The position numbers and the translations under genes are program-made. Under the pieces are notes generated by a model, which saw nothing but the letters and a program-made list of their open reading frames with translations, was not told where the DNA came from and searched no databases. Below, piece after piece: positions 9,130-27,003 of a stretch of DNA of 30,463 bases. How positions within the stretch are numbered: position 1 is the stretch's first letter; the number at the start of each line of letters is the position of its first letter. The stretch is taken from the NCBI GenBank assembly GCA_964013405.1, contig CAXGWI010000027.1:1-30463 (forward strand). Direction: 5' to 3'. The stretch is from an uncultured Myxococcales bacterium (GTDB lineage Bacteria; Myxococcota; UBA4151).

Positions 9130-11211
9130 TTACTCAGGGGCGTTAGGGTCGCCTTGTTGCTGAGATTCCAGCTCCTCCACCCGTCGCTCTAGGGAATCGA
9201 GTCGGGGCTCCAAGGCCTCGACTGAAGATCCGTCGACGGATGCCTCCTCGCCGTCCGCTGCTGCGAGTCCGTCGCCAGCCTCCTCGTCCTCGTCCTCTTC
9301 ATCCTCGTCTTCATCGTCGAGCTCATCGCCATATTCGGCGGCCATCAACTCGTCGAGACGCATGACCGCAGGTGCCTCTTCGCCGTCCTCGTCTTCATCC
9401 CCGTCTTCGGTCATGACGAGGGCTTCCTCCTGGATGCCCTTCAACCAATTGACGGGCCCAATGGAGACGGCTGGCACATAGGTGACGATCAAGAGCCCCA
9501 CCAACATCACCCGAGTAAAGGGGAAGGTGGCCCGGATCACGTCGCCGATGCTGCGTTTGAAGAGACTGGAGCTGACGAAGAGGTTGAGCCCCATGGGCGG
9601 GGTCAAATAGCCGATCTCTAGGTTGACGATGAAGATGATGCCCAAGTGAACCGGGTCGATGCCCAATTCCATGGCCATGGGCGCCACCACGGGGGCCACG
9701 ATCAAGATGGCGCTCATGATGTCCATGAGGGCACCCACCACCAGCAAGAACAAGTTGAGGATCAACAAGAAGCCGATCCGCTCCAGGTTCAAGCTCGACA
9801 GCCAGCCAAGGGCTTTCTCCGGCACCTCCGCGTCCACCAAGAAGCCATTGAAGCCCAGGGCCATGGCGACGATCACCAACAAGGCCCCCAGCATGACCAT
9901 GGAGTCCAACAGGTGGGGCACCATGCCCCGCCAAGTAAGGGCCCGGTGGACAAAACGCTCCACCAAGGCGGCGTAGACGACCGCCACCGCCGCCGCTTCC
10001 GTCGCATTAAAGAGCCCGGAGTAAATGCCGCCGAGGATCACCACCGGCAGCATGAGGCTCCAAAAGCCATCGACCACCGCGTGGCGGAGTTCTTTCCAGT
10101 CCAGCGGGCAGAAGGCCACCGCCACGACAAACAACGTCGGCACCCCCAGGAGGAGCACCGATGCCCCCACCCGACCCATGACCGCCAAGGCCCCCAGACC
10201 CAAGCTCAGCACCACGGCGAGGCCGACCGCGATCATGCCCCGCTTCACCGGCGCCGACAGGTTCCCCCGGCGCAGGCCTTCTTTGATGCCGTAGGCCGAG
10301 AGGAGACCGCCGATTAACAGGCCCGGACCGACGCCGGCCAGGAAGAGATCCCGAGGCAGCACCTGGGCTGCACCGGTCACCATGATGGCGTAGACGATCA
10401 TGGGGATGGAGGGGGGAATCAGGATACCGAGGGAGCCGGCACTGGTCACAAGGCCCAGGCTGAAGGGCTCCCGAAAGCCGGCCCGCAACAGGGCCGGATA
10501 CATCATCGAGCCGATGGCGATGACCGTCACCGGCGAGGAGCCACTGATGGCCGCAAAGAAGATACAGGCTGCCACCGTCACGATGGCAAGGCCGCCTGGC
10601 ATCCAACCCACCAAGGCCCTCGACAGGTTGATGAGGCGCTCCGCGATGGCCCCTCCCGTCATCAGCGCACCCGCGATCACGAAGAAGGGAATGGCCAGCA
10701 GCACCTCTTTATTGGTGAGCTCACTGACCTTCCGGATCAGTTCGGTGAAGTCATCAAGGCTCGTGTAGGCTTTGTCCCCGACCCCGAGATAGAAGAGACA
10801 ACTGACGGTGACTGCGCCGATGATCGCAAAGAGGGGCAAGCCCAGGAGAATGCCCAACAAGGCGCCCCCCAAGACGATGAAGGTGCCGGGCTCAAGCCCC
10901 AGAAACATCCACAGGCTGAGCAGCCCGATGACCGCAGCGCCTGCGGGCTTCTCGGAAAATGCCAAGGCCCCCACGATCAAAATGGCGAGCTCCAGCCAAG
11001 CGGCGATAATCGCGCCGGTGCCTCGGCCCTCGCTGACGAGGAAGAGGTTGGCGATCAACAGGACCACGATCCCCACGGCGAGACCCACGGGGGCCTTCTT
11101 CGCAGCAGGCTTATTGCGTGCGTCGATGCGCTCGGCCATCTCGATCAACTCGAGATCGATGGGGCGCGTGCCGGCTAGAACCCGAGGACTGCGCTGCGAT
11201 GGCTCGCTCAT
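9130..11211 (-). CDS. dctM: TRAP transporter large permease (DctM family) with extra hydrophobic segments and an acidic C-terminal tail
   Basis: Motifs LLAIPFFVIAG, FAAISGSS, GSLGILIPPSIPMIVY, ATEAAAV, IDPVHLG and EIGYLTPPMGLNLFV. Confidence 0.93.
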   Translation of the reverse strand: MSEPSQRSPRVLAGTRPIDLELIEMAERIDARNKPAAKKAPVGLAVGIVVLLIANLFLVSEGRGTGAIIAAWLELAILIVGALAFSEKPAGAAVIGLLSLWMFLGLEPGTFIVLGGALLGILLGLPLFAIIGAVTVSCLFYLGVGDKAYTSLDDFTELIRKVSELTNKEVLLAIPFFVIAGALMTGGAIAERLINLSRALVGWMPGGLAIVTVAACIFFAAISGSSPVTVIAIGSMMYPALLRAGFREPFSLGLVTSAGSLGILIPPSIPMIVYAIMVTGAAQVLPRDLFLAGVGPGLLIGGLLSAYGIKEGLRRGNLSAPVKRGMIAVGLAVVLSLGLGALAVMGRVGASVLLLGVPTLFVVAVAFCPLDWKELRHAVVDGFWSLMLPVVILGGIYSGLFNATEAAAVAVVYAALVERFVHRALTWRGMVPHLLDSMVMLGALLVIVAMALGFNGFLVDAEVPEKALGWLSSLNLERIGFLLILNLFLLVVGALMDIMSAILIVAPVVAPMAMELGIDPVHLGIIFIVNLEIGYLTPPMGLNLFVSSSLFKRSIGDVIRATFPFTRVMLVGLLIVTYVPAVSIGPVNWLKGIQEEALVMTEDGDEDEDGEEAPAVMRLDELMAAEYGDELDDEDEDEEDEDEEAGDGLAAADGEEASVDGSSVEALEPRLDSLERRVEELESQQQGDPNAPE

Positions 11212-12572
11212 GCCGCCTCCTCTTTCGATTCGGCCTCAGCCTCTTCACGCTCCGCGAGGAGGGCTTCCAACTCGCTCTGATCCACGTCGATCCCAGCGGC
11301 GGCCAGGTAGGGATCATCCTCTTCTGCTTCGACCCCATCCCAGAGGTTGTCTAAGCCGATGGCCAACATGCGCAGACCGGCCACACCCAGACCCACTGGG
11401 ATCGCTAACTGCACGGTCCAATAGGGTATCGGAATGCTGGGATAGATCTTCAGCGCCGGGTTCTCAGCCCACTCGATGTAGTCGGTCCACGTCTGCATTC
11501 CCCCGAGCCAGGCGAGGAAGAAACACGCAGCGGCCCCACCCACATGGGCACCGAAGCCAAAGAGCGGCTGCATGCGATCGGGCACCGATTTCCGTACGGC
11601 ATCGACGGTGATATGTCGGCCTTCACGGGCCGCGACCGCGGCACCAAAGAAAGCCAGATAGAACAACATGCCCGAAGCGATCTGCAGAGCCCCCGGGATG
11701 TCCGAGGGGAAGGCCCAGACGAAACCGTGGCAGAAACCGTAAAATCCGGCGGCGATGACGAGCCCGGCTGCCAAGCGCATCGCCAGGCTCTTCCACTGGG
11801 TCACCATGGCCCGCTCGGTGGCGAAGATGAGCAGCAAACTCATCACGAGCCAGAGGATGATGACCGTCTGCTGACCGGAAGCCACCTGGGCTTGCATACA
11901 GTCGTTGAGGGCGCCCAGCTCGGGGTGGCTGCCCCCCTCAGAGAGGGCATCGAGCAACGCGCTGCGGTCCTTGCCATCGGTGGCGACGGCCTCTGCGCAC
12001 AGATAGGACGAAGCGCTCGGGTTCATCACCTCGCCCAAGCGATTAACGCCAGTGTCCCCCACCAACTTGGTGACGTTGCGGTGCAGAACAGAGAGGAAGG
12101 TCACCAAAGTCATGGCCGTGGCAGCGATGACGATCATCCCCACCTCGAGACGCTGCCAAGGCCGATCAAAGGCCCGAAAGAAGCGACGGAGGTCCCCCAC
12201 GACCCGAGCGACCCAGGTCAGCACCCTGGTGATCGTTTGGCGCGGCATGGTCAGGAGACCGAGGACGATGCCCCCCGCAACGATCCACCGCAGGGCCCCA
12301 CGCAGCTCGGCCCAGCCCTCCGGCGCCCACCAGGCGACTGCGACCATCACCAGGATTGCGAGGCGAGCCCATCGCCGCCAATCCATGAGGCGGAAGAACT
12401 GGGGCACGACCTCCAAGAGGGTCCAGAGCAGCAAGCCGGCCACAAGCCAAAGGGGCAAAACCGCAGGCCAGTCGAGCCCTCGGGCCCAGACGCCCCCGTA
12501 GACTTCTAGGAGCCCAGCGAGCAGTCCATAGGCGCTCAGCTTGAGCGCCGACTGAACAAGGGGGTGGTTCAC
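11208..12572 (-). CDS. dctQ: TRAP transporter small permease (DctQ family), enlarged to 454 aa
   Basis: Lies between dctP and dctM with 4-nt overlaps; C-terminal half carries the DctQ signature FFGAAVAAREGRHITVD...IPYWTVQLAIPVG. Confidence 0.8.
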   Translation of the reverse strand: MNHPLVQSALKLSAYGLLAGLLEVYGGVWARGLDWPAVLPLWLVAGLLLWTLLEVVPQFFRLMDWRRWARLAILVMVAVAWWAPEGWAELRGALRWIVAGGIVLGLLTMPRQTITRVLTWVARVVGDLRRFFRAFDRPWQRLEVGMIVIAATAMTLVTFLSVLHRNVTKLVGDTGVNRLGEVMNPSASSYLCAEAVATDGKDRSALLDALSEGGSHPELGALNDCMQAQVASGQQTVIILWLVMSLLLIFATERAMVTQWKSLAMRLAAGLVIAAGFYGFCHGFVWAFPSDIPGALQIASGMLFYLAFFGAAVAAREGRHITVDAVRKSVPDRMQPLFGFGAHVGGAAACFFLAWLGGMQTWTDYIEWAENPALKIYPSIPIPYWTVQLAIPVGLGVAGLRMLAIGLDNLWDGVEAEEDDPYLAAAGIDVDQSELEALLAEREEAEAESKEEAA

Positions 12573-13600
12573 TTGCCTCGACGGTAGGCCTTAAGCCCTT
12601 TCTCGATCGCGGCGAGGAGCTTTGCCCCCTCAGGTCCGCCGAAGCTCTTGAACAGCTTGTGCACCTTCTTCGCCCGCTTCGCCATCTTCTGACGCTCGCC
12701 GGCCGACACCTCGTGCACTTGGACTTTCTTGAGCTTGAACTGCTCGAGGAGCGGGGCGTTGAGCTTACGGATCAACTGGCGGCCCTTCTTGGTCTCCTTC
12801 TCCCGATACTTGGGATCGAGGAGCACTTTTTGCAGTCGCTTGTCTTGGCGATCAAACCACTTCTTCGAAGCCACCAGCACGGCCGGTTGGTAAATGTGGC
12901 CCGTGAGGCTGTAGTGCTTGATGGAATCCACCCAGTTGGTGGCGAAGGTAAACAGAGGCGTGTTCGTGAAACCATCGACGACCTTGTTCTGCAGCGCCGA
13001 AAGCACCTCGGGCACCCCCATCTCCACCGGGCTCCCCCCGAGGGCGCGGAAGGTCTCCAAATGGACACGGCTCTGCTGAACCCGCAGTTTCAGGCCTTTG
13101 AAATCGTCGGCCCGCTTGATGGGCTTTTGCAAGGTCGCCATGCCGTGCCAGCCGTTCTCGGAGAAGCCGAGGAGCACGAAGCCCTGGCGGGCAAGGATCT
13201 CCGACACCTGATCGAAAACCACGTTGTCGAGAACATGGTCGGCCTCGGCACTGTCCCGGAAGAGGTAAGGCAGTTCGAAGACATTCAGGGATGGAGCGGC
13301 CGTTGCGATCGCCCCCGTGGAGACACCGATCAGGGGCAGGCGCCCGAGCCGGCACTCTTCCACCATCTCCTTCTCACCACCGAGCTTACCGCCCAAAGCC
13401 GGCTTGATGCGGACATTCATGCCCGCCGCCTTGGCCTGCTTACTGACCCGCTTAGCGAACTGCTTGAGCCAGATGGCCCAAGGGGTCCCCTGGGGTGCCA
13501 CCGAGCCGGCCCGCACGGAGATCTTCTTCCCCTTGGCAGCGACGGCTGGCCCAGACGCGAGGCCCAGGCCCAAACACATAACGACAGCGAGGGAGCGCAT
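12569..13600 (-). CDS. dctP: TRAP transporter substrate-binding protein (DctP family)
   Basis: Signal peptide; motifs GSVAPQGTPW, GGKLGGEKEM, FELPYLF, FKGLKLRV and EVLSALQNKVVDG. Confidence 0.93.
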   Translation of the reverse strand: MRSLAVVMCLGLGLASGPAVAAKGKKISVRAGSVAPQGTPWAIWLKQFAKRVSKQAKAAGMNVRIKPALGGKLGGEKEMVEECRLGRLPLIGVSTGAIATAAPSLNVFELPYLFRDSAEADHVLDNVVFDQVSEILARQGFVLLGFSENGWHGMATLQKPIKRADDFKGLKLRVQQSRVHLETFRALGGSPVEMGVPEVLSALQNKVVDGFTNTPLFTFATNWVDSIKHYSLTGHIYQPAVLVASKKWFDRQDKRLQKVLLDPKYREKETKKGRQLIRKLNAPLLEQFKLKKVQVHEVSAGERQKMAKRAKKVHKLFKSFGGPEGAKLLAAIEKGLKAYRRGK

Positions 13601-14514
13601 TAGAAGCGGTCTTCCGATTCTTCGAGAAGGGCTTTAGCCTTCACCTTCTCACGGGCCAACTCCGGTGCGAGGTCGGCGTAGACCGCCTCGGACACCTCTT
13701 TAAGGGACTCGATGTTGAAGGCCATGACCTGCTTCAAGCTCTTCTCATAGTTGGCCTTGTCGTCCTGCTTCGTATAGAGGAGGTCGGCCCGCAACACGAC
13801 CGTGGTCATGTTGAAGGGAGCGATCTCGAGGCTCTTCTTGAAGTACTCGGCGCTCTTGTCCATGTCGCCGCCAGCAAAGGCAGGAGCGATGGAGTAGAAG
13901 GCCCCCCAGTAGCGGGGAACGGCACCATGAAAGAAGCCGTTCTTCGGATCATCCAGAGCTTCGACCCGGCTCATGATCGCCTGAATGGTGCTCTTTTGAC
14001 CAAGGACAACAGCGAAGCCTTTCTTGCGGGCCCACTTACCCAGGTTGGTCGCGTACCAGTAGGCGGCCGGCAGGCTCTCTTTGCCGATCACGTTGATGGA
14101 TTCCCCGACGTTGCCATCGGTCTCTTCCATCTTCGTCCGGAAAGCCGGGCTCGAGAAGAACAGGGCCTGCTCCGCAGCCTTTAGCCCCTTCTGATAGGTC
14201 TCCAACATGCCTTCACCCTCGCCCTGGAAGCGCAGGTACGCATCGCTGAGGAAGTAGTTGGCCCGGGCGAGGCTCGTGAGCACCTCGACATCGTCGGAGA
14301 TTGCGACGACCTGCTCCCAGGTTGCGATCGCCTTCTTCAACGCTTCCGGGTCGTGACGATTGGCCCAGTGGGCTGCCGCCTGCTCCTTAAGCTGGGTGAT
14401 CTGATCTTCCTTACCGGTGCTGGCTTTCGCCGCACGGGCCTTCATAAACGCGTGACCGCCGGAACAGCCTGTCATCAGGCCGAGGGACACGAGGAGGATG
14501 ATTTGATGGCGCAT
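13600..14514 (-). CDS. TRAP-associated TPR-like lipoprotein (TatT family, T component)
   Basis: ATG 14514 with AGGAG RBS; lipobox MTG-C. Helical protein with YWYATNLGKW, FFHGAVPRYWGAFY..APAFAGGD....EYFKKSL and C-terminal KAKALLEESEDRF; stop overlaps the dctP start. Confidence 0.8.
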   Translation of the reverse strand: MRHQIILLVSLGLMTGCSGGHAFMKARAAKASTGKEDQITQLKEQAAAHWANRHDPEALKKAIATWEQVVAISDDVEVLTSLARANYFLSDAYLRFQGEGEGMLETYQKGLKAAEQALFFSSPAFRTKMEETDGNVGESINVIGKESLPAAYWYATNLGKWARKKGFAVVLGQKSTIQAIMSRVEALDDPKNGFFHGAVPRYWGAFYSIAPAFAGGDMDKSAEYFKKSLEIAPFNMTTVVLRADLLYTKQDDKANYEKSLKQVMAFNIESLKEVSEAVYADLAPELAREKVKAKALLEESEDRF

Positions 14515-14620
14515 GAAATAACTCCTGATCCAAGTTTTCGGCACCGGGTTAGTGCCAGTTGCTTGCGATTGCAACGACCTTTGAAGCAACCGATTCAATC
14601 GGGCCCCATGGAAAATCCGC

Positions 14621-16385: not shown

Positions 16386-18680
16386 CTAAGGCGCCGGCTC
16401 TTCCTCGGGCGGATCCTGGCAGGAGCGCTCGGTGCACACCTCACCTTCATCACACTCCGCATCGGCATCACAGTCGACCAGCGCGCAGGCTCCATTGCCA
16501 CCGGTGCACTCCAGGGCGGTGAAGCTCTTGGTCACATCGTTGATGCCGTCGAGGTTCGTGGCGTTGAAGGCGAGAATATCACCGAGGGACACATCATCCG
16601 TGCCAAAGGCCTGAACCCAGGGGCTCTCTGCCCGGTCATCGAATCCGTCAGGCACCGCAGGCACGACGATCTCACCTGTGTGATCGGCCCCATCCACGTA
16701 GATGGCCCAGCCCTTACCGGCATCGAGACCACTCATCTTCAAGCGATAGAATGTGGCACCTTCGGCGCCGGTCCCGGCCGTGTACGTGCGGTTCCGAACG
16801 TCATAGTTGGAGCCGGTCGTGAAACCCATGAAGCTGTCTGCAACGGCCTGGCGCTCACAACTTTGGAGATCGGCGCAAACGGGCAGACGCGGCGTGCGCA
16901 CGACGATCCCGCTCAACGCGGTCCCATCCTCGGCGAGAAGACCATCAACGTCGAGACTCAAGAGGAGTCCCCAGTGGTCATTGCCATCAAGGCCAGAGTG
17001 CCGGCGGGCGTAGGTGATCGCGAGTTGGTCGCCAGGCTGATCATCTTGACCCGAAACCCGGCCATCGGCTGGATCATCTTCACCGAGGCTATCCACGCCC
17101 ACGCCCAAACCGAGGGGCACCACGCCCTGACCGGGGACTTCCACAGCCACCAGCCCTAAAGCCGCGCTCAACCATCCCTCACCGCCACCTGGGCGGGCGG
17201 GCAGGGCGGGCACGGAGAACGACGTGCGGAAGTCCAAACCACCGGAAAGGGGCAGCACATGCTCCTCAAAGTCGCCGGTCACCCGCTCGGGGCAATCATT
17301 CTCTTCGGTGGGGTTACAGGTCACCAGGTTCACCTGGGTGCCCAACTTCACACCGTGGGTCATCTGGTTGATCAGGGGCGACAATGCGCCCAACAGGGTG
17401 CCGAAGGGGAGGTTGTCCAAGTCAGCATCTTGAATGAGCGGGGCGATGGTCGGCAGCAGGCTCGTGATGTCGCTGAGACGGAAGGCAGCGCCTAAGCCCC
17501 AGAGTGTACGTGTCCCTTCCAAGCCCAAGGCCGTGAAGCTCGGCTTAAACTCCTGGGGCCCGAAAGCCAGGGTGATGCCCTGGGGCAGCGGAACCCCCTC
17601 ATCGGGGAGCGGCAGGCCGGGGATGTTGACCTGCGTCGGCACCAGATCACCGATGAGGCTCATGAAATCGATATCTGCGAAGCTGCCCTGCAGTGAGAGG
17701 CCCGCCAGCCCAACCTTCAGGTCACGATCCGGCAACTTACTGAAGTCGAAGCGGCCCTTCACGCCCGAGACTTTGCCCACGGGGTAGGTGGTGACCGGAA
17801 TCATCAAGTCGTTGCCTTGGGGCTTAAGGATCGTCACGTAGTCCGCTTCCCAATCCGCGTTGCGATAGAACAAGCTCACCGAGGTCACGGGCCCGGCCAC
17901 AACACCGAAGTCAGCGATGCCGGCATCGTCTGTGACGAGCGTCTGATCTTCAGCGGCGTCCACCACCACGGTGGCACCAACGAGCGCACCGCCCGTCCGG
18001 CTATCCACAGCCACGACGCGCATGCTGTCGTTCGCGACGTCCGCATAGTTACGACCGGAAAGGGTGCATTCGACAGCGGTCCCCGCAACCGTTGCCTTCA
18101 CGGTCCAGTTTCCGTCCGCTGAACCGCCGGTCATCACGCCCTCTGCCGAGACGGCGATTTGAGTATCACCGGCCCCAACGCTGTATTCGTAAGCCATTCG
18201 ACTCACCACGGCACCGCCACTGGAATAGGCGACGGCCGCCAACTGAGCGGTCTCCCCTTGGCGGGTCACTTGCGCACCGGTCAGCGAGCAGCTGGCAACG
18301 CTGGCCGGGTCGGGGGCGATTTGGCAGGCGCCACCGACACAGACGCGACCCGCGCCACACTCACCATCATCGGTGCAGATCTGGTCCGTGCACTGACCCG
18401 TGTGGGCGATGCAGACTTGCCCCTCTTCGAGGCAGTCGTCGTCCGTCTCACACGCAACCTGGAAGCAGAAACGATTGGTGCAGGCATAGCCCGGAGCACA
18501 CTCATTATCTTCCTTGCAGCGGCAAGCCTCACCACCGATCTTTCCATCCACAGCGCTGGTGCAGGGGGCCGCGGGCGGTCCCGCATCGTTGCCACCATTG
18601 GGTTCGTCATCGGGACATCCAGCCAGAGCGAGCGCCAGCGGCAGGATCAGGGCGAGAGGTAATTGAGTACGCACGAGCAT
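16386..18680 (-). CDS. Large Cys-rich lipoprotein with Ig-like and carboxypeptidase-regulatory-like segments and an uncharacterised core
   Basis: AGGAG RBS; lipobox LAG-C-PDDEP. CxxDxxC Cys-rich units at both termini; VVAVDSRTGGALVGATVVV...TDDAG segment. Confidence 0.7.
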   Translation of the reverse strand: MLVRTQLPLALILPLALALAGCPDDEPNGGNDAGPPAAPCTSAVDGKIGGEACRCKEDNECAPGYACTNRFCFQVACETDDDCLEEGQVCIAHTGQCTDQICTDDGECGAGRVCVGGACQIAPDPASVASCSLTGAQVTRQGETAQLAAVAYSSGGAVVSRMAYEYSVGAGDTQIAVSAEGVMTGGSADGNWTVKATVAGTAVECTLSGRNYADVANDSMRVVAVDSRTGGALVGATVVVDAAEDQTLVTDDAGIADFGVVAGPVTSVSLFYRNADWEADYVTILKPQGNDLMIPVTTYPVGKVSGVKGRFDFSKLPDRDLKVGLAGLSLQGSFADIDFMSLIGDLVPTQVNIPGLPLPDEGVPLPQGITLAFGPQEFKPSFTALGLEGTRTLWGLGAAFRLSDITSLLPTIAPLIQDADLDNLPFGTLLGALSPLINQMTHGVKLGTQVNLVTCNPTEENDCPERVTGDFEEHVLPLSGGLDFRTSFSVPALPARPGGGEGWLSAALGLVAVEVPGQGVVPLGLGVGVDSLGEDDPADGRVSGQDDQPGDQLAITYARRHSGLDGNDHWGLLLSLDVDGLLAEDGTALSGIVVRTPRLPVCADLQSCERQAVADSFMGFTTGSNYDVRNRTYTAGTGAEGATFYRLKMSGLDAGKGWAIYVDGADHTGEIVVPAVPDGFDDRAESPWVQAFGTDDVSLGDILAFNATNLDGINDVTKSFTALECTGGNGACALVDCDADAECDEGEVCTERSCQDPPEEEPAP

Positions 18681-18760: not shown

Positions 18761-18946
18761 AGCAAACCAAGGTCGTTTTGGCGATCATCTCCCGAGGGGC
18801 CAGTCCAAGGGCCGGGCGTGACCTGGCGCACAAGTTGAGTTAGTCTCACCCCCAGTTGAACATTCCAGGGCTTGCGCCCGGTTCCAAACAGGGCTTTCGT
18901 GGTCTCCGATAAGCCATCACGCCCGCTGGGCGAGAGAGTGTCTCCT

Positions 18947-21900
18947 ATGCGCCCCTTCGCTATCTTGACCCTGTTCGCCTTCGGCTCGCTCTTGGCCTGC
19001 TCTGGTGAGGATGAGCCCGGCCCAGAAGACCGGCCCGGGCAATCGCCTGTACCGAAGCCCGCCTGCGAGGGCGATCAGATCAACGACCCGCTGGCCGGGC
19101 GCTGTGTTGCCCCTCTGGGTGCAACATTGCCTTGCCCTGAGGGCAGCTTCCTCGATGCCCACGAGTGGCTTAATGAAGAGGCCCGCGTTCTCTATGTGGA
19201 GTCTGGTGCGACGGGCGGCGATGGTTCCGCGAAGAAGCCACTGGGCAGCATTGCGGAAGCCCTCAGTGGGGGGGATGCCCAGGTTGTATTGATGCTGGCG
19301 AAAGGCAGCCATCCCGCACCAGAACAGATCACAGGCCCAGAACGAACCGTTCGAGTGATCGGTGCATGCCCCGCGGAAACCCTGATCACCGGCGAACTCA
19401 AGGCTTCAGAAGTGACAGGCCTGGGGTTCTCGGCCCTCCAAATCGATGGTGGAATCATGGCCACTGCGGTCAAAACCATCGAATTGCATCAGTTGATCGT
19501 CGCCCACCCGGGCGGCTCAGGCATCCAGGTCACGGGCGACAATCTCGACCGCTTCGATCTATGGCTTAGCGATATCGAAGAGACCGGCGCACACGGCCTA
19601 TCGGCCCAAGGGGCGCTGGGCTGGTGGACAGTTGACGGCGCCAACTTCAAAGGCCCCATCGGCGGTGACGGGATCTCGCTCATCGATTTCGGTGGCAGTC
19701 AATTCCGCTTTCGCAATGGCACGGTGGGGCAGGTTCTAGGCGCAGGGATCAACGGCGAGCGGGCCCTGGGCTGGTGGACGGTCGACGGCGCTAACTTCAC
19801 GGGACCCATCGGTGGTGACGGGATTTCGCTCGTCGACTTCGGTGGCTCGCAGTTCGATGTGGTGGAGACCACCTTTCGCGAGGTGGAGGGCCACGGCATC
19901 CATGGCGACGGAGCCCTCGGTTGGTGGACTGTCGATGGCGCCAACTTCCAAGGCCCGATCGGCTCTGATGGCATCTCTCTTATCGATTTCGGTGGTTCAC
20001 AGTTCACGGTCAGTGGCAGCGAGTTCAGCCAACTGGGCGGTTCAGGCATCATGGCTTTCCAAGGGGGCGGCGAGTGGTCGGTGGCCCGCAATCTGCTCAG
20101 TGGCCCCGTCGCTGGCGATGGTTTCCGCTTCACGGACTTTGCAGCCGGTAGCAGCCTAAGTGTCAGCGAGAATACGATTTTAGGCGTGGCAGGCTCGGGT
20201 ATTCTGGTCGACGGTGGCGACCTGAACGCCACTTTAAGCGGAAATCAGATCAGCGACTCCGGTGCGATGGGTATCGACATCGCCAACACGGCTGCAGGCA
20301 GTTCAATTGCGGTGACGGAAAATCGGATTGAAAACGCCACTGGGGTCGCCATGGGTCTAGAGGCAACGGCGGCTGAGATCATGCTGAGCGGCAACGAGAT
20401 CGTGGGCACCGGCACAGGAGATGTCGGTGGCGATGAGGGGGTCGATGCCCACGGCTTCGGCCTGACCCTGCTCGATGTCGGCAACGTGACAGTGCACCAG
20501 AATCACCTCAGGGAGAACACCACGGCAGGTGTGCTCATCGACTTAGAATTGTGGGGGTATTACGCCGATCGTTCCGACTTGGTCGGCCCAGCCAGTATTG
20601 CCATCACCGAAAACGACTGTGCCGGACACCATGACCCTGAGACGCGGGCAGAAACCAACATCGTGATCCAAAATGTCGATCCGGACCACAGCGTGACTGT
20701 CGATCATGCCCAGGCTGAGCCCCCCACAGAACCATCATTAGGTCCTGACAATAACTACACGATGAAGCGGGGCCGGGATCGCAGAGCGCAAAGCTGTGGC
20801 GATGGAACCGTCCAGCGTTGGGAAGACTGTGACGACGGCAACAATCGGGAAGACGATGGCTGTAATACGAATTGCCGGCTGCCCACATGCGGTGATGGCC
20901 GGGTTGATCCCACGGAAGACTGCGACGACGGAAACAACGATCCAGCGGACGGGTGCTCGAATCAATGTGAGACGGTCTATGTTCAAGACCTCGCCATCGG
21001 CTTTAAGCATTTATGCGGTCTTTGCGCTGAAGGCAGGGTCTGCTGCCAAGGGACGAATCAGCGCGGACAACTTGGCAAGGGAACACGGAATGAACTCGAG
21101 GGGGTTCACCGTGTCGTTGGCGTCCAGCATGCTGTCGAAGTGGCTGCGGGGCGGACTCACACCTGTGCACGCATACGGTCGGGCCGAGTCGCCTGTTGGG
21201 GGGGCAACGACTACGGGCAGTTGGGCTCTGGTAACCAAACAGCTTCAGCCTCGGCGACCTGGGTGCGAACTGACGACGGCAACGTACTCACCGGCGTCCG
21301 TCAGCTCTTTGCCGCGTACAACAATACGTGTGCCATTAAAGTCAATGGCGAGACCTTCTGTTGGGGAGACAACCGAAAGGCCCAGGTTTTAGGCGGGCCT
21401 GGCGCCACAGATTCCGTGCTCAACGCCAGGAGGCTAGATGTGCTCTTAGACGCAGCCGACGTCGCTATTGGCATCAACCACGTCTGTTCTCTCAATTCAG
21501 AAGGGCAGGTCGCTTGCTGGGGCGATACAGATGAGGGTGCACTCGGCGGAACCCCACCATCGCAAGCATGCCCTGGAGAGGCTGAAGGTTATGAGTATTG
21601 TGTTAGCACACCATTGCATGTCTCCTTTCCCGAAAACTATACCGCCAGCGCGCTCGCAAGCGGCGACGGGTTCTCCTGTGCCGTCGCTGGTCCGGCCAAC
21701 AAGGTCTTTTGCTGGGGCTCAAAATATCAAGATGGAAGACTTGGTCACGCCGACCCGGACCAAGCGTTATCACCAACCGCTGTGGTTTATGGCGATGGCT
21801 ACCTCGTTGACGTTGCCAAACTGGCCCTAGGCCCAAGTCACGGCTGCGCCCTGAAAATAGACGGGACGGCTTTCTGCTGGGGCAACGGAGAAGACGGAAG

Positions 21901-22138
21901 AATCGCCACCGATGGCAACCATCGACAGCCCTGGCGACCTAACCCACTGCTTCGGTCGTCTCAGGGGCCGGGCTCCGAGGGGCCGCTGGAAGGCATTACA
22001 TCCCTGCAGCTGGGCTATTATTCGGGTTGTGCTCGCTCAAACATCGAGCCGGCAGGCACCTACTGCTTCGGCAAGATCTACGATGGCGAAGATTTCACGA
22101 TCTACGAACGGGCCGAATCGTTGATGGGGGGCGACTGA
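18947..22138 (+). CDS. Modular lipoprotein: right-handed beta-helix with 50-aa repeats, 2 DUF4215 repeats and an RCC1-like beta-propeller
   Basis: ATG 18947 gives MRPFAILTLFAFGSLLA-C. N-terminal GDGSAKKPLGSIAEAL motif common at the start of beta-helix proteins; G-I-x-x...N-x-I repeats; CGDG...CDDGN twice; repeated AGxxHTCA...GxVxCWGxNxxGQLG units. Confidence 0.85.
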   Translation: MRPFAILTLFAFGSLLACSGEDEPGPEDRPGQSPVPKPACEGDQINDPLAGRCVAPLGATLPCPEGSFLDAHEWLNEEARVLYVESGATGGDGSAKKPLGSIAEALSGGDAQVVLMLAKGSHPAPEQITGPERTVRVIGACPAETLITGELKASEVTGLGFSALQIDGGIMATAVKTIELHQLIVAHPGGSGIQVTGDNLDRFDLWLSDIEETGAHGLSAQGALGWWTVDGANFKGPIGGDGISLIDFGGSQFRFRNGTVGQVLGAGINGERALGWWTVDGANFTGPIGGDGISLVDFGGSQFDVVETTFREVEGHGIHGDGALGWWTVDGANFQGPIGSDGISLIDFGGSQFTVSGSEFSQLGGSGIMAFQGGGEWSVARNLLSGPVAGDGFRFTDFAAGSSLSVSENTILGVAGSGILVDGGDLNATLSGNQISDSGAMGIDIANTAAGSSIAVTENRIENATGVAMGLEATAAEIMLSGNEIVGTGTGDVGGDEGVDAHGFGLTLLDVGNVTVHQNHLRENTTAGVLIDLELWGYYADRSDLVGPASIAITENDCAGHHDPETRAETNIVIQNVDPDHSVTVDHAQAEPPTEPSLGPDNNYTMKRGRDRRAQSCGDGTVQRWEDCDDGNNREDDGCNTNCRLPTCGDGRVDPTEDCDDGNNDPADGCSNQCETVYVQDLAIGFKHLCGLCAEGRVCCQGTNQRGQLGKGTRNELEGVHRVVGVQHAVEVAAGRTHTCARIRSGRVACWGGNDYGQLGSGNQTASASATWVRTDDGNVLTGVRQLFAAYNNTCAIKVNGETFCWGDNRKAQVLGGPGATDSVLNARRLDVLLDAADVAIGINHVCSLNSEGQVACWGDTDEGALGGTPPSQACPGEAEGYEYCVSTPLHVSFPENYTASALASGDGFSCAVAGPANKVFCWGSKYQDGRLGHADPDQALSPTAVVYGDGYLVDVAKLALGPSHGCALKIDGTAFCWGNGEDGRIATDGNHRQPWRPNPLLRSSQGPGSEGPLEGITSLQLGYYSGCARSNIEPAGTYCFGKIYDGEDFTIYERAESLMGGD
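19610..20155 (+). repeat. Coding direct repeats with 150-nt period (three conserved copies, one degenerate)
   Basis: xALGWWTVDGANFxGPIGxDGISLxDFGGSQF begins at 19610, 19760 and 19910; a degenerate fourth copy begins near 20060. Confidence 0.92.
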
Positions 22139-22602
22139 CGTATCTCGCGCCGCCATAAGACAAGAGCATAGATCACGGTGACGATGAGCAAAAACACCTG
22201 AATCGGCTTGAGCCCCAGGGGGCCGCTCGCCGGACTGTCCCCCCGGAAGAACTCGCTCAGGCAACGAAACGAGGCATAGCCGAGCAGGTAGAGGCGAAAC
22301 AGGCTCCCCCGCACGCGCAGTCGGTCTCGCATACGAAACAGGACGAAGAACAACACCGCATCGAAACCGATTTCGTAGAGGGGAGAGGGGTGCACAGACA
22401 AGCTGTGGCTCGCAGCGTCCCCGAGCAATCCCTGGTGATGATGGAGTATGTGGGCCGGTGAGCCTGCCGGGGTCGGTCGTCGGATTTCTGAAGCAGTAAG
22501 ACGACCACCACACTCAGCCCCAAGGGGGCCTCCAAGCCAAACCAAGCCCACGGCGAACGCCCCTTGCGCTCCGCAGGCGAGCAGAAGGAGCTATGGGGTC
22601 AC
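22102..22602 (-). pseudogene. Prolipoprotein diacylglyceryl transferase (Lgt)-like pseudogene
   Basis: C-terminal Lgt-type motifs PAGSPA, VHPSPLYE and GSLFRLYLLGYASFRCLSEFFRGD. An in-frame GTG at 22602 overlaps the upstream stop and is followed by TAG at codon 4 (22591-22593). The frame is only about 166 codons and lacks the central GRxGxF region. Confidence 0.75.
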
Positions 22603-23183
22603 TTTTTCGGTGGAACGACCGGCACCCACCCCTGGTCCGTTGAGAGCGTTACGTCTCCTGATCCTAAGTGGCCAGCGACGAAGCCGACCCCCGCGCCAAC
22701 GATGGCATAGCCACCCACCAGCAAGGGGCCAAGAGTCACCACCTGTGGCAGGTCCCGGGGCAGATCCAAATCGCCCTGGAGCACCAGGATGGCTAAAACG
22801 CCACCACCGACGATGGCACCACCGACAGCGCCCCAGGTCGTCGCTCGCCGACCCACGACCCAGCGGCGAACATTCGGTCCCGTAAAAGTCACAGCAGTGA
22901 GTTCGTTCATCGGTGCAGCGACCGGCCCTTCAGGCCCCTGGAGGATCACTTGGTCGCCGGCCCGCCGAATAAAGGGAGCGCTCACATCGCCAACAGTCAC
23001 CTCTCGCACGTCCCGACTCGAACGAACAACAGCAACCCGCTGTTCGAGAACCTCACCCTTCACCAATAAGAATTCCGCTCTGTTGATCTCCTTTGGTGGC
23101 ATACCATCGTAGACCATCGGCGGTCGGGGGCCGACCACCTGGCAAGCGCACAACAAGAGAAGCCCGAGGACACCGAATCTCAT
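22599..23183 (-). CDS. Hypothetical lipoprotein with C-terminal Gly-rich hydrophobic hairpin
   Basis: MRFGVLGLLLLCA-C lipobox; segments WGAVGGAIVGGGVLAIL and LVGGYAIVGAGVGFVAG; ATGA overlap with the upstream gene. Confidence 0.75.
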   Translation of the reverse strand: MRFGVLGLLLLCACQVVGPRPPMVYDGMPPKEINRAEFLLVKGEVLEQRVAVVRSSRDVREVTVGDVSAPFIRRAGDQVILQGPEGPVAAPMNELTAVTFTGPNVRRWVVGRRATTWGAVGGAIVGGGVLAILVLQGDLDLPRDLPQVVTLGPLLVGGYAIVGAGVGFVAGHLGSGDVTLSTDQGWVPVVPPKK

Positions 23184-23878
23184 GGCTGCACAACCTCGAT
23201 TTGGAAGTGCTCCCGGTCAATGAGGTAAATCGGCTCCACCGGGCGTCCTTCGAAAAATGCTGCGGATGCCAAGGTGCCCAAGGCCGCTCCAGTGGGCACA
23301 GTCACCGGCGAGGTAAGCAGGGCAACAAAGCCGCCGAAATCATCAGAGGTGGCCAAGGAACCCGCGATGCCGGCGACGACCAAGGCACCACCGATCCATC
23401 CAGCCCGAGTGCGCCGAACATTTCGGCTCAGGGACCCACCCGGTGAAACCCCGACAATCCCAGACATCGGTATTTGATGTGAACCGCTGTTGGTGGCCAA
23501 CTTGACGAACTGACCACCGGGATCAACGTGGGCCAACCGGCCCGAACCGCGATGAAGAATCCATTGGCCCGACGGGTTCGGCAGCATCCAGCCGAGGGCG
23601 AGTTGATCACCGACCACGAGTTCGACGGACTCCTCACCGGAATGAAGCCGTAGGCCCAGCGCGCTGCCCTGAGCGACCGCTGTATCGGCGGAGAACAGGG
23701 GGGGCGGGGTGGTCACGCAGCCGGTTAAGAGCATGGGCCCAAACGGGCCAGCCCCCGTCGGCGATATGCTTGTCGCGTAGGCGAGGGTAAAACAGATCGC
23801 CGCGGCAAAGAGGCGGCGGCGCTGCCGGCGGCTGGAGTTCATGGCGTCAATCTGCCGCCGTCGGCCCCGCCTGGTCAA
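23180..23878 (-). CDS. Hypothetical membrane protein or lipoprotein with C-terminal Gly-rich hydrophobic hairpin
   Basis: Arg-rich N-terminus, hydrophobic segment and possible lipobox LTG-C; segments GWIGGALVVAGIAG and VPTGAALGTLASAAF. Start uncertain (TTG 23878 overlapping the upstream TGA, or ATG 23842). Confidence 0.7.
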   Translation of the reverse strand: MTRRGRRRQIDAMNSSRRQRRRLFAAAICFTLAYATSISPTGAGPFGPMLLTGCVTTPPPLFSADTAVAQGSALGLRLHSGEESVELVVGDQLALGWMLPNPSGQWILHRGSGRLAHVDPGGQFVKLATNSGSHQIPMSGIVGVSPGGSLSRNVRRTRAGWIGGALVVAGIAGSLATSDDFGGFVALLTSPVTVPTGAALGTLASAAFFEGRPVEPIYLIDREHFQIEVVQP

Positions 23879-24045
23879 GCGTCCACCTGAAGGGAACTGC
23901 CTGGCAGGCTCTGAGGCGCTGGGGGATGGACGACCGCCCCCACGAGCTCGGCCCGCAGTGGCTCAAGGACCTCGGCCTCAAGACCGTCCCGAAAAAAGAG
24001 ATTGTAGGTGTCGAAGGGAATCAAACGACCATCTTCCGGATGCAG
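23875..24045 (-). pseudogene. C-terminal remnant resembling a COG1964/MJ0619(Tes)-like radical SAM protein
   Basis: Frame reads LHPEDGRLIPFDTYNLFFRDGLEAEVLEPLR..., matching the H..PDGRIIPF[CD]xYN C-terminal motif I recall for this family. No CxxxCxxC-containing part is present upstream. Confidence 0.6.
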
Positions 24046-24049
24046 TGAC

Positions 24050-24673
24050 TCAGTGGACGAAGTCATTTGCTGCCTCACCAAACGAGTTGAGACTCGCCAA
24101 ATACGCGATCACGCGCTCGATGCGAGCCGTTGGACTGAGTTCTTCAAGGAGCTGCTGTCGGTCCATGACGTCGGGGATCAATTGCCCCGAGATCAGGTCC
24201 GCCAACTCCACCGGGTTGTCGAGACCCTTGGTGAGTTCGGCGATGCCCTCTTTCAGGGCTTCGGAGTCGCCAGAAAGGCCCTCGAGAAAGTCGAAAAGGA
24301 GGAGCCCTACCTCCTCAGGAACGGTCTCGCTGCGATCCGGCAACTCGGCGACCTCGGCCTCCCGGTAGGGCTTCTCCGGTGGCAACTCGCGCTCGAGGCG
24401 AACACGCTTCGTACCGAAGACCAGGATCTGGTAGCGACCATCTTCCATACGCTCTTCCATGAGCACCTGACCCATCCCCATCACCGGGAAAATCGCCGGC
24501 CTGCCGTGGTAATCATCCTCATAGCCCGGCTGTAACAGGGGGATGGCCAGCTTCCGATCGCCTGCAAGGCAATCTTCGATCAGCTTCCGATAGCGGGGTT
24601 CAAAGACGTGCAGCGGGACGATATTGCCGGGAAACAGCACGACGTTTGGCAGGGGAAAAAGCGGTAAACGCAC
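24050..24673 (-). CDS. Stand-alone Lon peptidase substrate-binding (N-terminal) domain protein
   Basis: LPLFPLPNVVLFPG...PLHVFEPRY, DGRYQILVFG and RQQLLEE motifs; no AAA+ or protease domain. Confidence 0.92.
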   Translation of the reverse strand: MRLPLFPLPNVVLFPGNIVPLHVFEPRYRKLIEDCLAGDRKLAIPLLQPGYEDDYHGRPAIFPVMGMGQVLMEERMEDGRYQILVFGTKRVRLERELPPEKPYREAEVAELPDRSETVPEEVGLLLFDFLEGLSGDSEALKEGIAELTKGLDNPVELADLISGQLIPDVMDRQQLLEELSPTARIERVIAYLASLNSFGEAANDFVH

Positions 24674-24777
24674 GAACGGTAGATCTCCGGAGCGACTCGC
24701 ATTAAGGTTTCATAGCGCAGCGGGCAAGAGCAAGCCTTCGCCCGCGCTGCTTGCCACCATGCTCGGGGATCCATCTT

Positions 24778-27003
24778 ATGCGCTACACCGTGCTCCTCCT
24801 GTTACCCCTCGCTGGCTGCCCCCAGGAGGAACCAACTCCGGGCTCCGATGCGGGGTCAATCCCAGTGGACGCAGGCAGCGAAGAGGATGCCGGCCCCGCG
24901 GAGCTCGCCTGTAATGATGGCAAGGGTGCATTGCCCGACGGGCTGATCACCCAAAGCTGGTTTGCCGACGAGAATTGGCGAGACATCTTCGACATCAACT
25001 GGGTGTATCAGAATCAACGCACCGTGGAGTTACCCCAATGGGAGGCCGCCCAGTTTGAGTTGGACCGGAAGGCCCGGGTGCACGGTTACAGTGTTCGCTT
25101 CCGCCGCATCGCTCGCCGCCATCAAAACGAAGATCCGTTAACCGTCAGCTTGCTCCCCGATTTCGGCTATGACGGCGCCAACTTTGGCAGCCATGAACCG
25201 TTGGCGAGCGTGAGTCGCTGTGTCAAAGACGCCGATGAGGCTGGTGTCCTCGATCAGTGGCTCACCTATAAGTTAGAGACCCCGATCGATGTGGACGGCC
25301 CCGGTTTGGTCTGGGTGGGCTACTTTAAGGAAGATGCCCAATCCCCCGTGCTGGCGCTGGCCAGCAGTCCTGATCCAGAACGAAACTGCGAGGGCCCCTA
25401 CCAGGGCTGCCACTCGGCCTGGGGCTTTCCCACCCTCGAAGACTGGTGGTTCAACGGCCTCTCGATTCCCATTCAAGTGGACTACGCAGTCCAGTTGCAC
25501 TTCGAGTACATCGAGCCGGAGCGCAGCGCCGAGGAGATGGTGTTTCGACGGGACGGCGACCAACCCAACTTCGGTGGGCGTGTCGCCATCGCAGACTACA
25601 ACGGCGACGGCTGGGCTGATGTCTTTGCCGGCGGGAAACTGTGGCAAAATGTCGAGGGCCGGTTCGTCGACGCCACCGAAGGCTCTGGCCTTCTTGCCAC
25701 CGGGAATGAGGCCTATCCCGGCGCAGGGGCGGGAGGTTCGGGCATCTGGGGTGATACCGACAATGACGGCTGTCTCGACCTGCTCACCTACGGCACCTAC
25801 GAACGGCTCTTTCTCGGCGATTGCCAGGGTCACTTTCGCGATGTCACCGACGAGACCGGTATCGATGACCTCCAAGACGCCATCGACTGCAACGATGATC
25901 CGGACGACCTCGAACATGCACCGGCCCAAGCGGCTGCTTGGATCGACATCAACAACGACGCACAACTGGATTTCTACCTGGCGAATAGCGAGTGCTGGCG
26001 GGGCGACCGAGGCGACTTTTATGCGGACCAGTTCTACCTGAAGCGGGAGGGGAATCGCTTTCGAGACATCATGGGAAGAAATGGCTGGGCTGCCTACCAG
26101 GATTACACTCGAGGGGCCAACCCCATCGACGTGGATCACGACGGTGATGTCGACTTGCTCGTGAACAACTACCGCCTCAAACCCAATCGCCTCTGGATTA
26201 ACGATGGGCGAGGGCGTGTCTCCGAGATGGGCGCTCCCATGGGCCTTGCGGGCAATCAGATCAACGGCGCCTACGGACACACCATCGGCGCCGCTTGGGG
26301 CGACCTGAATCACGATGGCTGGTGGGATGTGATCCTCACCAACCTCTCTCACCCCCGCTTTTATCATTTCTCCGACGTGTCCTTCTCCATGCTCGGCACC
26401 GAGGCCGGCCCCTGGGAAGCTGTCGAGCCCAGTGGCTTTCGCTTCCAAGAGACCCACTCCGTTCCGGCCCTGGCCGATTACGACAGCGATGGAGACTTAG
26501 ACCTGGTCATTTCGGCCACCTATCCTGGTCGCCCCACCGACTTTTACTGGGGTCAAGGCGACGGTAGCTTCGTCGGCGACCACGGCGGCAGTGGCCTCGA
26601 TATTCGCGGGGGTTGGGGCGTGGGCGCCTCCGACTTTGATCACGATGGCGATCTCGACCTTATCTACAACGGTTATTGGACGAACCAGCACCCACAGGGA
26701 CAATCCCTGCACTTCAGCGTCCTGGGCGATGGGGTGACGGTGAACAGCTATGCTTTGGGTTCGACGCTAAGGGTCCAAGTGGGCCAACGCCACTACCTGC
26801 GCTATGTCGATGGGGGCAGCAGCCAGGGTGGGCAAAACCTAGGCCCCATCCATGTGGGCATCGGCGACGAAGCGCAGGCCGAGCAGGTCACTGTCAGCTA
26901 TCCCGGTGGCGCGGAGCGCAGCTTTGCTGGCCCCTTCGTCCCGGGCACCCACTACTGGCTCCTGTTCGACGGTCGAATCGTTGAGGGTTGGCCCAAACCT
27001 TAG
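24778..27003 (+). CDS. CRTAC1-family lipoprotein (FG-GAP/VCBS repeats plus ASPIC/UnbV-like C-terminus) with an extra N-terminal domain
   Basis: ATG 24778 gives MRYTVLLLLPLAG-C. Repeated DxxxDGxxD loops (DYNGDGWAD, DTDNDGCLD, DVDHDGDVD, DLNHDGWWD, DYDSDGDLD, DFDHDGDLD); C-terminal NSYALGS...GGSSQGGQN..PIHVGIG. Confidence 0.88.
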   Translation: MRYTVLLLLPLAGCPQEEPTPGSDAGSIPVDAGSEEDAGPAELACNDGKGALPDGLITQSWFADENWRDIFDINWVYQNQRTVELPQWEAAQFELDRKARVHGYSVRFRRIARRHQNEDPLTVSLLPDFGYDGANFGSHEPLASVSRCVKDADEAGVLDQWLTYKLETPIDVDGPGLVWVGYFKEDAQSPVLALASSPDPERNCEGPYQGCHSAWGFPTLEDWWFNGLSIPIQVDYAVQLHFEYIEPERSAEEMVFRRDGDQPNFGGRVAIADYNGDGWADVFAGGKLWQNVEGRFVDATEGSGLLATGNEAYPGAGAGGSGIWGDTDNDGCLDLLTYGTYERLFLGDCQGHFRDVTDETGIDDLQDAIDCNDDPDDLEHAPAQAAAWIDINNDAQLDFYLANSECWRGDRGDFYADQFYLKREGNRFRDIMGRNGWAAYQDYTRGANPIDVDHDGDVDLLVNNYRLKPNRLWINDGRGRVSEMGAPMGLAGNQINGAYGHTIGAAWGDLNHDGWWDVILTNLSHPRFYHFSDVSFSMLGTEAGPWEAVEPSGFRFQETHSVPALADYDSDGDLDLVISATYPGRPTDFYWGQGDGSFVGDHGGSGLDIRGGWGVGASDFDHDGDLDLIYNGYWTNQHPQGQSLHFSVLGDGVTVNSYALGSTLRVQVGQRHYLRYVDGGSSQGGQNLGPIHVGIGDEAQAEQVTVSYPGGAERSFAGPFVPGTHYWLLFDGRIVEGWPKP

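Follow-up and report, generated by a model that had tools for sequence, protein, structure and literature searches.

Two described enzymes are among the closest to the system considered here. Lgt of Escherichia coli (PDB 5AZB/5AZC; PF01790) is inactivated by mutation of His103, the proposed base, Arg143, Tyr235, Arg239 and Arg246 bind the lipid head group, and the lipobox follows the consensus [LV][ASTVI][GAS]C after a signal peptide of 16-26 residues (excerpts of PMC8689077). Tes, also called GDGT-MAS (M. jannaschii MJ0619, PDB 7TOL), is an archaeal radical S-adenosylmethionine (SAM) enzyme that joins lipid tails via a sulfur-carbon intermediate (excerpts of PMC9433317). Hundreds of bacterial Tes homologs are known, none with a shown function; synthesis of brGDGTs (branched glycerol dialkyl glycerol tetraethers), lipids used as climate proxies, has been proposed for them, and they are candidate markers for these lipids (excerpts of PMC8941075). 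Other enzymes were later found for diabolic acids (excerpts of PMC13159169). We analysed contig C27 (CAXGWI010000027.1; 30,463 nucleotides, below called the window) of genome G000, a 94% complete assembly of an uncultured Myxococcales bacterium (GCA_964013405.1). Its minus strand carries a decayed five-gene operon in which the remains of a Tes-like radical SAM gene and of an Lgt paralog flank two intact genes for predicted lipoproteins, orfA and orfB. The locus is real, dead and part of an undescribed module, and we are highly confident that it records the decay of a cassette found intact in other marine bacteria, in which both enzymes are encoded with exported glycine-zipper proteins, here termed clients.

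Intact Lgt paralogs match PF01790 over their full length (E = 2e-17) and keep the equivalents of Tyr26, Arg143, Tyr235, Arg239 and Arg246, the last four of which are invariant in alignment A4; cysteine-bearing exported proteins are encoded beside them. Unlike Lgt, however, the paralog is a second copy in addition to the genome's housekeeping lgt (in G000 on a separate contig, C20), it reaches 53 of 118.9 bits on the equivalog model TIGR00544, far under the cut-off, and its clients have either a leader of 41-46 residues or no lipobox. The window copy is, moreover, half deleted. A Cys-Cys motif was rejected as a mark of the paralog, being present in housekeeping copies as well.

The cassette radical SAM enzymes align with MJ0619 in the rubredoxin, N-cluster, radical SAM and C-terminal regions (E = 4e-66), and the rubredoxin, N-cluster and CX3CX2C cysteines are conserved in the intact enzymes but absent from the window relic. 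They differ from Tes in that they come from bacteria and are coupled to lgt, that all three cassette enzymes scored missed the NF045702 cut-off (265-317 of 450 bits), that the Met439 site is variable and the Tyr459 site is not kept (both dispensable in Tes), and that one C-terminal cysteine of 7TOL is replaced by Asp or Glu, so that the cysteine pattern differs there. For two of three intact enzymes, the best NCBIfam hit is the radical SAM (seleno)protein TrsS (NF045646; named in a table in excerpts of PMC13188914), matched over the full length but under the cut-off (317-329 of 490 bits); the cassette enzymes translate without UGA. Mss, the bacterial membrane-spanning lipid synthase, is also a radical SAM enzyme that joins acyl tails, but it is described as only remotely related to Tes, and the excerpts of PMC13159169 and PMC13459092 give no link to Lgt.

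At the locus, the Lon-N gene is followed on its 3' side by the radical SAM tail, orfA, orfB, a broken small gene and half of an Lgt paralog (Table 1). A sequence-only reading of the window had described four minus-strand frames chained by 4-nt overlaps, the first and last broken and the middle two intact. The strings are present (TTGA 23875-23878, ATGA 23180-23183 and GTGA 22599-22602), both middle frames are open, and the flanking genes are indeed reduced to the end of the radical SAM gene and the C-terminal half of lgt. The operon, however, has five genes, and the TTG at 23878 is probably not the start of orfA. The upstream peptide had been recognised correctly as a Tes-like remnant: tblastn with an intact cassette enzyme of 487 residues places its residues 443-485 on 24033-23905 at 65% identity (genome-wide E = 2e-10), and the profile match has E = 9e-11, with a weak match to positions 459-482 of 486 in the Tes model NF045702 (E = 0.094).

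The last frame had likewise been assigned to an Lgt paralog, and its distal part matches positions 135-237 of 240 in PF01790 (E = 2e-13; tblastn E = 3e-26; profile E = 1e-42), but its proposed GTG start belongs elsewhere. GTG 22602 is the start of a fifth gene, encoding the membrane protein of about 60 residues that lies ahead of lgt where the locus is intact; profile A9 of this protein matches 22464-22574 as its sole hit in G000 (E = 0.0017). The lgt relic starts near 22470, which implies that a second deletion fused the small gene to mid-lgt. Reading 22536-22471 as lgt was rejected, since this segment is the small gene off frame and would break invariant lgt residues that the relic otherwise keeps. 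The N-terminal half of the paralog, including the Arg143 motif, is deleted. The remainder retains all 16 invariant residues and 35 of the 39 highly conserved ones on a branch of length 0.75, compared with 0.89-1.24 for three intact relatives, suggesting that the deletion is recent. No other pieces of the radical SAM or lgt-paralog gene were found elsewhere in G000. Together with the relic coordinates, this agrees with the earlier view that both enzymes had apparently been lost while the putative clients remained.

An alignment of 46 paralogs led to 354 metagenome relatives, the best 80 of which were fetched. Among these 80 of 354, the loci encode the small protein in 70 cases, clients in 65 and the radical SAM enzyme in 44; where at least 5.5 kb is available upstream, clients occur in 24 of 24 loci and the radical SAM gene in 22 of 24. 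Grouped at 90% identity, they form 24 clusters, with the radical SAM gene in 18, orfA/orfB homologs in 20 and the small protein in 22. Clusters of the Lgt subfamily occur in Myxococcota and Marinimicrobia, and the source names also include Poribacteria and an FCB-group bacterium. Six loci (L068-L072 and L088) match the gene order of the window, and in intact loci the homologs of the middle genes are flanked by the radical SAM gene on one side and lgt on the other, a neighbourhood that the sequence-only reading had anticipated. Genome G002, from the same family, contains the same parts reshuffled: a radical SAM gene, the small protein, the Lgt paralog and three tandem lipoproteins. Its radical SAM gene (L041:8508-9971, C162) has one in-frame TAG at codon 200 that is missing in the 98%-identical L066 and would represent a strain-level break or an assembly error. 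A contig scan with one paralog returned two loci.

The small membrane protein is usually encoded directly before lgt and is cysteine-free in most loci. Its alignment A9 has no conserved cysteine, and it was rejected as a cysteine substrate in this subfamily. Complex prediction for the Lgt paralog and the small protein gave 0.16 and 0.25 against a mark of 0.32 and was used neither way.

Across the phylum, a Tes-like radical SAM enzyme was found in 20 of 401 sampled genomes. Besides G002, this yielded 19 loci. Seven of them couple the enzyme with a same-strand lgt-like gene, eight have such a gene on the opposite strand and four have none; no client of the orfA/orfB family was found in any of the 19. 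Six of the seven same-strand loci (L047-L050, L052 and L054) encode, with the lgt-like and radical SAM genes, a coupled three-helix membrane protein of about 105 residues whose chain ends, behind a helix, in Cys-Gly-Gly. This survey indicates that the enzyme pair is constant and the client varies.

Some variants were observed in passing. In one Myxococcota type (L055-L057, L059 and L060; for example L056:2972-3748), the radical SAM gene stands head to head with a PF04116 fatty-acid hydroxylase family gene, and these loci also hold an lgt-like gene, a protein of about 130 residues and a membrane protein of about 300 residues. Two radical SAM subtypes, of about 472 and 520 residues, accompany nearly identical lgt paralogs in the Marinimicrobia-type loci (L073-L135), where unrelated genes often separate the clients from lgt. 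The Tes-like radical SAM gene of L065 is more distant and sits, without lgt, in a cluster of apparent ketoacyl-synthase genes.

The clients are predicted to consist of an Sm-like barrel followed by a glycine-zipper hairpin. None of the glycine-zipper families PF13488, PF13441 and PF05433 spans a whole client, and Pfam glycine-zipper hits were obtained for 2 of 49 clients, weakly (E up to 0.01). The barrel resembles YaeO (Z 7.7, root-mean-square deviation 3.2, 70 aligned residues) as well as Hfq, Lsm and MscS middle domains (Z 5-6.3), although Z values under 8 may reflect a common arrangement only and lie below the level proving kinship. A long leader and a lone hairpin cysteine distinguish the cassette proteins from known glycine-zipper and Sm-like proteins. 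From 65 non-redundant clients, five were removed as truncated or misassigned, and 54 of the 60 counted have a hairpin cysteine, exactly one in 49, mostly followed by small residues; in the orfA/orfB family it is present in none of seven rows. In the barrel adjoining the hairpin, the Cys frequency is 0.13%. As a control, we inspected 17 distant hits from the phylum. Twelve looked like true, stand-alone family members, with no lgt or radical SAM gene within 1.5 kb. Ten of these have two hairpin cysteines, one has one and one has none. This suggests that the cysteine pair forms a disulfide and the lone cysteine is a free thiol, a comparison in which the rows are related.

The leader shared by the clients comprises a helix and then a second segment. 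All 10 lipobox-bearing clients among the 49 rows of alignment A6, representing about four lineages, have the Cys at 41-46 and Pro at -6. In G000, Pro at -6 occurs in 3 of 149 crudely called lipoproteins, the calling pattern catching shorter leaders only. Clients of Marinimicrobia loci have no lipobox and only a hairpin cysteine; thus, the N-terminal lipobox is not a general target, and the earlier assumption that a lipobox cysteine is modified fails for these clients. In the low-GC loci, the leader lacks cysteine altogether, and the one candidate thiol left is that of the hairpin.

The start of orfA is most likely ATG 23842 rather than TTG 23878. It places the lipobox Cys at residue 42, compared with 41-46 in cassette homologs, and coincides with the start of the orfA entry P0002 in the protein collection, and in G001, a second genome of the same genus, the upstream TTG is closed by an in-frame stop. 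With this start, the first 4-nt overlap probably provides no working start/stop coupling. Upstream of orfA, an 8-base and a 9-base block with identical spacing before the in-frame ATG are common to G000 (23842-23880) and G001 (L005), where the flanking DNA has diverged; they could be a regulatory site or promoter.

orfA comprises a long leader, an Sm/SH3-like barrel and a glycine-zipper hairpin without cysteine; in its structure model, the predicted local distance difference test (pLDDT) score exceeds 90 for residues 61-130, the barrel, and the helical hairpin is less sure. The first model of orfB was poor (pLDDT 57), and Foldseek returned nothing at E 0.001 for either model. Homolog searches found two proteins for orfA and six for orfB, the ESM Atlas returned unnamed clusters (0.92-0.94) and weaker glycine-zipper clusters, and neither protein had a Pfam glycine-zipper match at the gathering threshold. 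Profile comparison with the cassette clients linked both families to them (hhalign 96.6%, E = 5e-10 for orfA; 95.0%, E = 4e-8 for orfB). orfA fits the lipobox pattern, but at residue 42, and its orthologs in G001 and P0163 carry ordinary signal peptides. Cys14 of orfB is invariant in five of five aligned homologs; position -2 is Cys, replaced by Ser in a single homolog.

Taken together, the sequence-only interpretation of a dedicated Lgt and a lipid-acting radical SAM enzyme modifying co-encoded lipoproteins is partly supported. Our preferred reading, held tentatively at a little below an even chance and with chemistry deduced throughout, is that the intact cassette lipidates its own glycine-zipper membrane proteins, placing a tail-joined lipid on a free cysteine. 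At the cytoplasmic face, the soluble Tes-like enzyme would form a C-C bond between two acyl tails of a glycerolipid, in the manner of Tes on archaeal lipids, and the Lgt paralog would recognise the long two-part leader and move the tail-joined diacylglyceryl onto the client thiol. The target would generally be the hairpin-tip cysteine, with the leader Cys42 where present, and the small membrane protein would be an accessory rather than a substrate. In the genus of the window, the enzymes would have been deleted and the clients would be passing to the housekeeping Lgt via ordinary signal peptides. A broader formulation, which we consider rather unlikely, is that marine Marinimicrobia and Myxococcota possess a second route of protein lipidation: guided by a long leader, a His-less Lgt would place a tail-joined, membrane-spanning lipid on a hairpin-tip cysteine at a distance from any lipobox. 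The window's genus would then be a natural knock-out, with clients that shed the cysteine and become ordinary lipoproteins again.

Several observations weigh against cysteine lipidation by the cassette. At 1.2% Cys, a 55-residue hairpin would contain one 48% of the time, the counts are overstated because the client rows are related, the hairpin cysteine is spread over alignment columns (the best one has it in 24 of 72 rows), and it is frequent outside cassettes too, with at least one in 11 of the 12 stand-alone members. The leader spacing differs in the L136 client, and eight Myxococcota loci have the enzymes head to head with no client of the orfA/orfB family detected. Moreover, the window clients lost the hairpin cysteine before the split of species that are 55-60% identical; since the break in the lgt relic looks recent, this cysteine cannot have been the sole target here, and Cys42 of orfA would have been the last one. 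Finally, the His103 site of the paralog is Ile, Val or Leu in all 38 rows (of 46) with a located motif. At this site, the housekeeping Lgts of the same family have Tyr (6/6), and the absence of both His and Tyr from the paralog would fit a different division of labour, in which the paralog only binds or presents lipid or client and the client is the substrate of the radical SAM enzyme, which would bond the cysteine sulfur with a lipid-tail carbon or cross-link the lipidated client. The sulfur-carbon intermediate of Tes chemistry (excerpts of PMC9433317) and the frequent direct coupling of the radical SAM gene to the first client gene point the same way. However, the enzyme is a soluble iron-sulfur protein without a signal peptide and the clients are exported, and the phosphatidylglycerol head-group residues retained in the paralog fit transfer; we regard this explanation as unlikely. 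Similarly improbable, in our judgement, is the production of a free membrane lipid, membrane-spanning or brGDGT-like, with the paralog shifting head groups between lipids and the glycine-zipper proteins serving as carriers or scaffolds. The brGDGT synthesis proposed for bacterial Tes homologs (excerpts of PMC8941075) favours it, as do several Myxococcota loci that pair the enzymes with a fatty-acid hydroxylase family gene and have no orfA/orfB-type client, but a lone membrane cysteine is common to unrelated client families, and according to the excerpts of PMC13159169, none of the diabolic-acid producers tested yielded a Tes homolog, and among acidobacterial producers of iso-diabolic acid only 3 of 14 did so.

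The decay itself has to be weighed against errors of assembly, which the sequence-only reading had named as one possible objection. Reads from 8 of 13 listed runs were examined, as contigs of 151-327 bases only, and none of these contigs bridges either deletion junction. An organism with an intact cassette would be compatible with this, with the TAG of G002 that is absent in L066, which shows that such assemblies can hold errors or strain variants, and with a contig of run X5 that continues from 24044 into intact Tes-like sequence. The X5 contig, however, differs at 4 of 51 bases and thus belongs to another strain or organism, four separate lesions lie inside 1.6 kb, and no further piece of either gene was found in the assembled genome. 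In addition, the independent genome G001 (93% complete) has a 78% identical Lon-N ortholog at the corresponding place, with orfA and orfB in the same order until its contig stops inside orfB; no Tes-like gene, Lgt paralog or small gene was found in it, and of the radical SAM tail it holds at most a trace. The second assembly therefore supports the arrangement, while the junctions have no read contig across them, and we consider misassembly a very remote explanation. It is also very unlikely that the relics are retained for a function, with the radical SAM tail translated as a spacer of 63 codons that couples Lon-N to orfA and the lgt half yielding a small membrane protein. A 63-residue mini-frame over the tail could indeed start from the in-frame ATG at 24066, the invariant residues of the lgt relic are all present, and in run X6 a related strain differs in this relic at six sites, four of them synonymous. 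Yet another of these six alters an invariant tyrosine (a single contig, depth 3.5), the relic has no lgt-derived start, and in G001 the radical SAM tail is almost entirely gone. Both relics look recent, yet G001 shares the neighbourhood; the deletions may have been independent.

No paper on the cassette or on a link to lgt was found by full-text searches of the literature outside subscription journals, and the neighbourhood may be listed in supplementary tables to the Tes papers. The word 'lipoprotein' does not occur in a 2026 review on lipid-modifying radical SAM enzymes (term search of PMC13459092). New here are the barrel-and-hairpin client, its leader and lone cysteine, the small partner without cysteine and a lineage observed while it loses the system. 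If the broader formulation is true, the cassette would make the first protein anchor from Tes chemistry and would provide a function for unexplained bacterial Tes homologs. If many of these act on protein anchors together with a dedicated Lgt, their reading as brGDGT markers changes, and lipidation at an internal cysteine would be a new kind of protein modification by lipid. The dead locus points to intact compact versions (L066, L069 and L071) and singles out the cysteine of the hairpin, Cys42 together with the Pro at -6, and the absence of His103.

Table 1. Features of the decayed operon and its boundary gene (positions in the window)
Feature	Position	Strand	Remarks
Lon N-terminal substrate-binding domain gene (Lon-N)	24050..24673	-	PF02190, E = 1e-37; intact; bounds the deletion, outside the cassette
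Relic of Tes-like radical SAM gene	23875..24048	-	Last ~45 conserved codons and tail; first ~440 codons gone
orfA, 220-residue predicted lipoprotein	23180..23842	-	Intact; lipobox Cys42 at 23717-23719, Pro at -6
orfB, 194-residue predicted lipoprotein	22599..23183	-	Intact; short signal peptide, Cys14 at 23142-23144
Relic of ~60-residue two-helix membrane-protein gene	22464..22602	-	Starts at GTG; broken by a codon-4 stop and a frameshift near 22575
Relic of Lgt paralog	22102..22470	-	C-terminal 120 codons, residues 150-269 of 270

No sigma-70 promoter or terminator was found in 21900-24900, and the locus had no plasmid match. An RNA-library contig (X7) spans 21886-22209 and carries neither strand nor level information. 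Elsewhere in the window, a TRAP transporter operon with a TAtT component occupies 9130-14598 (minus strand), and a 764-residue frame without a Pfam match lies at 16386-18680 (minus strand). On the plus strand, 18872-22138 encodes a 1088-residue beta-helix protein with cysteine repeats, RCC1 repeats and three internal near-repeats, and this gene and the lgt relic meet tail to tail, with 37 bases in common.

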